Assembly (NCBI RefSeq): GCF_048403405.1
Contig: NZ_CP183129.1
Reading direction: 5' to 3' (one strand)
DNA from: Escherichia coli
GTDB lineage: Bacteria; Pseudomonadota; Gammaproteobacteria; Enterobacterales; Enterobacteriaceae
DNA: 64,000 nucleotides
In this document: one piece after another, positions 11,974 to 12,486 of the stretch
Layout: every line of letters begins with the position of its first letter
Numbering within the stretch: the stretch's first letter is position 1
Notes under the pieces: generated by a model
Database searches by the model: none
What the model was told of the DNA's origin: nothing
Seen by the model: the letters and a program-made list of their open reading frames with translations, nothing else
Program-made: the position numbers and the translations under genes

Positions 11974-12486
11974 TTAGCTGAGGCGTTGAGGGCCAGCACG
12001 GATGCCTTGCGCCTGGCTTATCCAGACGGGCGTGCTGAATTTTGCTTGCGGGGTAAAATGCGCATAATCAATGCGATAACCCTTTTCAGACGGCGTGCCT
12101 TCCTGGGTCAACAGCGCGCTGAGCGTATCCAGTAATGCAAGATGTTGCGCCTGAAGAGGCAAAGATTCTTCAGCAACGGGCAGCGTTTGCGGTGCCATTG
12201 CGAAGGAAAGATGACGGATTACCGTGCGAATGGCATGTTGATGCCAGTAATCAACGGAATAGTTCGAATTCGGGCGGCGCGTGTTCGCTTCCAGCAAGGC
12301 CAATTGACCAAAGTTAACTTTGGCAGAAGGCTCGTGGTTGCGGGTTGTCGCTTTTGCGGGCGCGTTTGGTTCGGCGGCGTTGCTGAGCGCAGGCAAACCT
12401 AAACTCGCCGCGACCATCCCTAATAAGAGATGCGGCCAGAAGTAGCGTTTACCAAACTGTCGCCAGCGCGTCAGTATTCCACTCAC
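11974..12486 (-). CDS. secM: SecM secretion monitor / translational arrest leader (170 aa, GTG start)
   Basis: Arrest motif [17 protein letters not shown] at C-terminus; plus-strand cac at 12484..12486 gives GTG start at [10 protein letters not shown]. Confidence 0.93.

Follow-up and report, generated by a model that had tools for sequence, protein, structure and literature searches.

The secM gene upstream of secA in Escherichia coli: a GTG start, an arrest motif and a conserved predicted helix over the secA ribosome-binding site

The secM–secA locus

The window analysed here, a single 64,000-nucleotide stretch of Escherichia coli DNA, contains secM on its minus strand. The locus is the E. 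coli 2-minute region, lying on the reverse strand, with lpxC, ftsZ and ftsA upstream of secM and with secA and mutT downstream. Two coding sequences are central to what follows:

11974..12486, minus strand: secM coding sequence, 170 codons plus TAA, with a GTG start; RefSeq secM coordinates identical
9207..11912, minus strand: secA, a 901-residue open reading frame carrying the RefSeq annotation; the regulated downstream gene

The secM frame spans 513 nt, from GTG at 12486..12484 to TAA at 11976..11974 on the minus strand, with the plus strand accordingly reading CAC at 12484..12486 and TTA at 11974..11976. The secA ATG (11912..11910) follows on the same strand after a spacer of 61 nt from the secM stop codon, placing secM directly upstream of secA.

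Family models identify the product as a long-type SecM. The Pfam model PF06558 (SecM) gives 195.9 bits, where the cutoff is 25; it begins at SecM residue 24 and is thus uninformative on the start. With the NCBIfam equivalog NF002799 the score is 231.2 bits (cutoff, 100), with profile positions 1–168 of 169 aligned to residues 3–169. Chain 9vvi_6 of the Protein Data Bank (PDB) spans residues 1–165 of the window protein, and matching chains are present in the SecM-stalled ribosome structures 9vvi, 8qoa, 3jbv and 3jbu. At the nucleotide level, a 911-nt secM region is found in 5,424 of 5,426 complete E. coli genomes; the window copy matches E. coli strain TUM14771 with 100% identity and, with 98.2% identity, a K-12-like genome in which secM lies at 107705..108217. 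In the 100%-identical genome, RefSeq secM occupies 1775..2287 of the extracted locus, which corresponds to window positions 12486..11974.

We are therefore close to certain that this gene is the secM of E. coli, which monitors secretion and regulates secA in cis, and that its start is the GTG at 12486..12484. The preliminary description of this DNA had presented it as a known system, as is borne out by the family models above their cutoffs and by RefSeq secM at identical coordinates; alignment to annotated secM, the check that it proposed, returns the RefSeq gene of the 100%-identical genome with identical ends. The finding is correct and already known: secM is an ordinary textbook ribosome-arrest regulator. 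A scan for sigma-70-like promoter consensus sequences upstream of secM gave no site; a terminator scan after lpxC on the minus strand found none.

Elsewhere in the window, the Rfam matches, all above their gathering scores, are those expected for this E. coli region:

14878..14967, minus strand: PssrA, spanning the ftsA–ftsZ junction
9162..9231, minus strand: STnc40, spanning the secA stop codon and the secA–mutT gap
8569..8646, minus strand: naRNA4, a REP-type element between yacG and mutT
41377..41603, minus strand: SgrS
36469..36618, plus strand: leucine operon leader
44380..44479, plus strand: TPP riboswitch

Cross-genus conservation of the GTG start

Two features define the proposed initiation region:

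12484..12486, minus strand: secM GTG initiation codon, with GTG at the homologous position of 72 out of 73 loci
12494..12500, minus strand: Shine-Dalgarno-like GGGAUGG, 7 nt upstream of the secM GTG

For the start survey, one genome of each species was searched with a DNA pattern of the arrest motif, which gave secM loci from more than 25 genera together with some chance matches. Among 73 Enterobacteriaceae-type loci, the codon homologous to the start is GTG in 72 and TTG in 1, and Yersinia, Pantoea and Cronobacter likewise have GTG there. In Photorhabdus, Providencia, Proteus, Xenorhabdus and Moellerella, an ATG lies at most one codon from the GTG-homologous position.

The conservation profile changes abruptly at this codon. 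When 71 distinct sequences are anchored on the start, the mean information upstream is 0.30 bits over −70 to −1 and 0.38 bits over −30 to −1, with no periodicity; at +1 there is a step from about 0.3 bits to 1.9–2.0 bits, and over the first 25 codons positions 1, 2 and 3 carry 1.82, 1.90 and 1.36 bits, respectively. The codon at −1 is an in-frame stop in 15 of these 71 sequences, and in 36 of them the stretch from the nearest upstream stop to the canonical start contains no ATG, GTG or TTG. The sole well-conserved upstream feature is a GG at −10/−9 (1.13 and 1.63 bits; 71 sequences), and other genera have GGUGG or AAGGU in place of the E. coli GGGAUGG.

Judged from the RefSeq coordinates and the cross-genus survey, GTG at 12486..12484 is the translation start. 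The earlier proposal of a GTG start inside a longer apparent open reading frame is upheld by RefSeq, by the coverage of NF002799 and by conservation across genera. A Ribo-RET study likewise describes secM as a 170-codon open reading frame with arrest at codon 165. The survey constitutes a compact proof of a start from sequence only, and could serve as a template for other non-ATG starts.

Departures from the GTG were also noted. In a Leclercia sp. metagenome-assembled genome, TTG replaces GTG at the secM start. Four loci of the Enterobacter group (Enterobacter, Lelliottia) have extra in-frame GTGs 3 and 4 codons upstream (GTG GTG GAG CAA GTG), because of which the start in this group is ambiguous by up to 4 residues.

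Morganella secM (six loci from M. morganii and M. psychrotolerans) lacks ATG, GTG and TTG codons around its conserved N terminus, GNTILNLWRQ. The Morganella sequence GAGGGA-aac-ACT-ATT aligns with GAAGGA-tta-ATG-GGT-ATT in Photorhabdus, and NCBI records for Morganella (180 aa, MYSGSREGNT...) take as their start an ATA that lies in frame 10 codons further upstream and is without a Shine-Dalgarno sequence. ATT, 6 nt after the Shine-Dalgarno sequence GAGGGA, looks more likely to be the initiator than ATA. As read from these alignments, the Morganella start is non-canonical in either case.

Alternative starts and automated gene calls

The longer frame that surrounds secM adds the following stretch:

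12487..12639, minus strand: spurious 51-codon upstream extension, without conservation or periodicity; outside the gene

The 221-aa open reading frame given in the preliminary description is present, running on the minus strand from a TTG at 12639 to position 11974, and is a longest-ORF artefact, called mechanically from the first start codon after a stop. Translation could in principle begin in the same frame at this TTG (221 aa) or at GTG 12561 (195 aa), giving a SecM with an N-terminal extension: the frame is open for 56 codons above the GTG in this strain, with the TTG at −51 and the other GTG at −25, and public E. coli entries do begin with MLWT(A/S)GFNDK at the GTG 25 codons upstream, not at the TTG of the 221-aa frame. 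Against this, the residues of the extension are wholly different by genus (MRGISGGND in Salmonella and ...LAYVVEQ in Enterobacter), and nucleotide conservation there is at the upstream level described above, without codon periodicity. An in-frame stop lies 15 codons upstream in E. albertii and other Escherichia species, and a stop occupies codon −1 in Klebsiella, Phytobacter, Lelliottia and others. The NF002799 match begins at residue 54 of the 221-aa version and leaves the 51 extra residues uncovered; the extension runs antisense to what appears to be a decayed dciA (see below); and residues placed before the basic n-region would be expected to bury the signal peptide. On the basis of low upstream conservation, the stops at codon −1 and the frequent lack of any alternative start codon, we exclude upstream starts as very improbable.

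We give practically no credence to a start at Met24 (12417..12415), which would yield a 147-residue protein with the conserved upstream codons as an untranslated leader: it is the first in-frame ATG, PF06558 opens at this residue and the title of Sarker et al. 2000 implies that the start site was formerly placed elsewhere, yet codons 2–23 are the most conserved part and show coding-type conservation (close to 2 bits at codon positions 1 and 2 and less at many third positions, such as 6, 9, 12, 18, 21, 30, 33, 42 and 45), conservation of the N-terminal 22-residue peptide extends from Escherichia to Yersinia and Proteus, residues 1–23 are included in the NCBIfam equivalog and in PDB chains, and the signal peptide would lose its basic n-region and half of its hydrophobic core. 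The GTG at 12486..12484 thus stands as the start.

The secM start site has reportedly been revised in the past, to go by the title of the Sarker report of 2000 and by how others refer to it, and public records remain divided. Among the best 120 SecM cluster representatives, 59 begin with MSG(I/L)L and 58 carry genus-specific N-terminal extensions, a ratio that is not an error rate, as cluster representatives may favour long members. Public Enterobacter SecM entries have 196–219 aa, and the Salmonella entries of 174–177 aa include NCBI records. The earlier assertion that automated callers mis-start secM therefore holds for many public Prodigal-type predictions (58 of the 120 extended) but not for the RefSeq annotation of E. 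coli, which is correct. Longest-ORF and Prodigal-type calls add from 4 to 86 spurious SecM residues in many public records, which calls for caution in annotation; such extensions bury the signal peptide and would mislead surveys of signal peptides or arrest peptides.

We also considered a 4-codon mini-ORF, ATG GCA ATA ACG TGA (12483..12497, minus strand), as a coupling element. It sits in the Shine-Dalgarno region of secM and ends in a TGA that overlaps the secM GTG. The Citrobacter counterpart is GTG GCA AAA ACG TGA, nothing comparable occurs in other genera and, in Enterobacter, the corresponding bases are in frame with secM. The candidate was rejected as it is not conserved beyond Escherichia and Citrobacter.

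Separately, E. coli-like entries of 180–225 aa derive from frameshifted or chimeric assemblies without the arrest motif and are uninformative on the window. In eight E. coli/Shigella secM entries, a frameshift before or within the arrest motif removes GIRAGP; most of these are probably assembly errors. If one of them (P0034; 47 member sequences, with the frameshift at about residue 128) were real, it would represent a lineage without SecM arrest.

Signal peptide and arrest motif

The protein encoded from the GTG carries a recognizable element at each end:

12376..12486, minus strand: signal peptide, codons 1–37, of a long, atypical Sec type (hydropathy scan; PMC6993859)
11989..12039, minus strand: arrest motif, F150 STPV W155 I156 SQAQ G161 I162 R163 A164 G165 P166

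The N-terminal element has a basic n-region (R8, R10, K13, R14) and a hydrophobic core at about residues 15–30, followed by SNA/AEP. Hydropathy peaks at 2.12 in the windows starting at residues 20 and 21, which predicts a Sec signal peptide. Residues 1–37 of SecM have been described as the secretion signal sequence (PMC6993859, citing Sarker et al. 2000).

At the C terminus, F....WI....GIRAGP occupies residues 150–166, its single occurrence in all six translated frames of the window. The motif ends at Pro166, and the stop codon follows residue 170. A motif with nine fixed residues would not be expected by chance. The published motif is FxxxxWIxxxxGIRAGP, with stalling when Gly165 is in the P site (PMC10987492), and matches residues 150–166; the preliminary description was thus right that the arrest motif is retained at the C terminus.

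A predicted helix hiding the secA ribosome-binding site

In the RNA of the window, the 3′ end of secM is predicted to pair with sequence ahead of secA:

11980..11990, minus strand: 5′ strand of the helix, CU CAA CGC CUC, comprising bases 2–3 of the Pro166 codon and codons 167–169
11921..11932, minus strand: 3′ strand of the helix, GGGGCGUUUGAG, which holds the secA ribosome-binding GAG(A) and lies 8 nt before the secA ATG

The minimum-free-energy fold pairs the 3′ codons of secM with the 3′ strand (z = −3.1). In an alignment of 24 genera, this strand is nearly invariant within a variable secM–secA spacer of 58–68 nt, and consensus folding of the 24 genera recovers the helix core. For the full 11-pair helix, 93.9% of cells are paired across the 24 genera, compared with 30–66% for slid controls. 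Compensatory A-U to G-C changes are present in Kluyvera and Kosakonia (pair 21-90), with one more at pair 20-91, giving two pairs and three cells. Covariation is modest, with the score of these three compensatory cells reached by 7 of 500 shuffles, because the region hardly varies; the 5′ strand is also under coding constraint. In Entomohabitans, the helix is broken in the scored register and, by inspection, is paired in an alternative bulge register.

The ribosome-binding site would become accessible on arrest. When folding is restricted to mRNA lying 3′ of a ribosome that holds Gly165 in its P site, omitting the bases that a ribosome stalled at codon 165/166 covers, the probability that the secA GAG is unpaired rises from 0.00–0.02 in the free mRNA to 0.23–0.57. 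A fold in which the covered bases were merely forced to be unpaired was discarded as misleading, as it re-paired the secA site with codons 150–153, upstream of the ribosome. According to these models, a helix that sequesters the secA ribosome-binding site is present, and it is predicted to open on arrest. This agrees with the published model in which a stem-loop masking the secA Shine-Dalgarno sequence is opened by the arrest, which export then releases (PMC10987492).

A probable decayed dciA in the lpxC–secM spacer

The spacer between lpxC and secM (12487..12716) appears, from sequence comparison, to be a decayed dciA gene. In Yersinia, Proteus, Xenorhabdus and Moellerella, dciA (PF05258) lies between lpxC and secM, divergent from secM, and an intact copy scoring more than 200 bits is likewise found there in Cedecea, Buttiauxella and Dryocola; in E. 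coli, no dciA was found. The window spacer was compared with dciA at six loci. A plus-strand fragment of 11 residues (12644..12676) resembles the DciA C terminus ERLAALAGESA, in the syntenic place and strand and 40 nt from the lpxC stop codon. Its score is marginal taken alone, being reached by 7 of 300 shuffles. The same fragment is the best dciA-sense match in 14 of 19 dciA-less genera, of which 13 have it 17–41 nt from the lpxC stop; the 19 are genera with correctly delimited spacers, Salmonella being excluded as its lpxC stop had been mis-located. Kluyvera, Cronobacter and Atlantibacter retain the AQILPSL..SSID core of dciA instead.

The DNA of the fragment forms a hairpin, CTGGCCGGAGAGAGTGCCAG, which may have been retained as the lpxC terminator. 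Brezellec et al. 2016 describe dciA at the lpxC–secM position and the loss of dciA in dnaC-bearing Enterobacteriales; their text makes no mention of a dciA remnant, pseudogene or vestige.

Proposed mechanism

We propose that initiation at the GTG would give a pre-protein of 170 residues, the first 37 of which form a long Sec signal peptide at the N terminus. With Gly165 in the P site and Pro166 in the A site, the nascent arrest segment would, as described in the literature, halt elongation from within the exit tunnel. In this arrested state the ribosome would cover codons 166–169, which in the free mRNA pair with the strand holding the secA ribosome-binding site, so that the helix would open and secA translation be allowed. 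Active SecA/SecYEG engaging the SecM signal peptide is described as pulling on the chain and releasing the arrest; because release depends on active export in this way, SecA synthesis would rise when secretion is impaired. Our analysis supports the identity of the gene, the position of its start, the motif, the order of the genes, the conservation of the helix and the prediction that it opens. Arrest and release are known for K-12 SecM (PMC10987492), which is identical to the window protein over its first 169 residues, and for this strain the literature is our basis for expecting arrest, release by export and signal-peptide cleavage.

A further, rather unlikely, possibility is that the weak non-ATG start of secM is selected as part of the regulatory device and is not an accident. 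Virtually all of the Enterobacteriaceae, Yersinia and Pantoea sequences surveyed retain GTG, even though one G-to-A change would suffice to make it ATG and neighbouring synonymous sites vary freely, and Morganella has a still weaker initiator, ATT or ATA, in place of the ATG of its relatives. Low initiation could space ribosomes widely on secM, such that an arrested ribosome would not be struck by a trailing one; a collision of this kind could displace the arrested ribosome or trigger collision rescue. Were the weak start selected in this way, the lifetime of the arrest would be set by export alone.

Comparison with known systems

Among other monitoring peptides, VemP (Vibrio) and MifM (Bacillus) resemble SecM in combining an N-terminal export or insertion signal with a C-terminal arrest sequence that unmasks a downstream ribosome-binding site (PMC10987492). 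They are, however, non-homologous to SecM, with other arrest sequences and other targets (secDF2 and yidC2), and neither family is matched in the Pfam or NCBIfam results for the window. The short-type SecM of Mannheimia and other Pasteurellaceae (PF10818, SecM_small; NF038363) shares the role of a monitoring peptide encoded upstream of secA. The short-type models show weak N-terminal similarity to the window protein, at 20.9 and 25.9 bits, below their respective cutoffs of 26.1 and 45; the window SecM is of the long type, consistent with the long/short split described previously (PMC10987492).

The closest known system is K-12 SecM itself (b0097, WP_000014321.1; formerly gene X), which shares the position between lpxC and secA, the length of 170 aa, the GTG start, the signal peptide and the arrest motif. 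The two proteins differ in the last residue, after the arrest point: Ser170 (AGC; WP_000014320.1) in the window and Thr170 (ACC) in K-12. In the window, AGC occupies 11977..11979, and its GC (11977–11978) adds two predicted pairs to the helix (partner 11933..11934), with a folding energy of −17.4 kcal/mol for AGC compared with −13.9 kcal/mol for ACC. Since AGC is the commonest codon at position 170 in the other genera aligned, the ACC of K-12 is the derived state.
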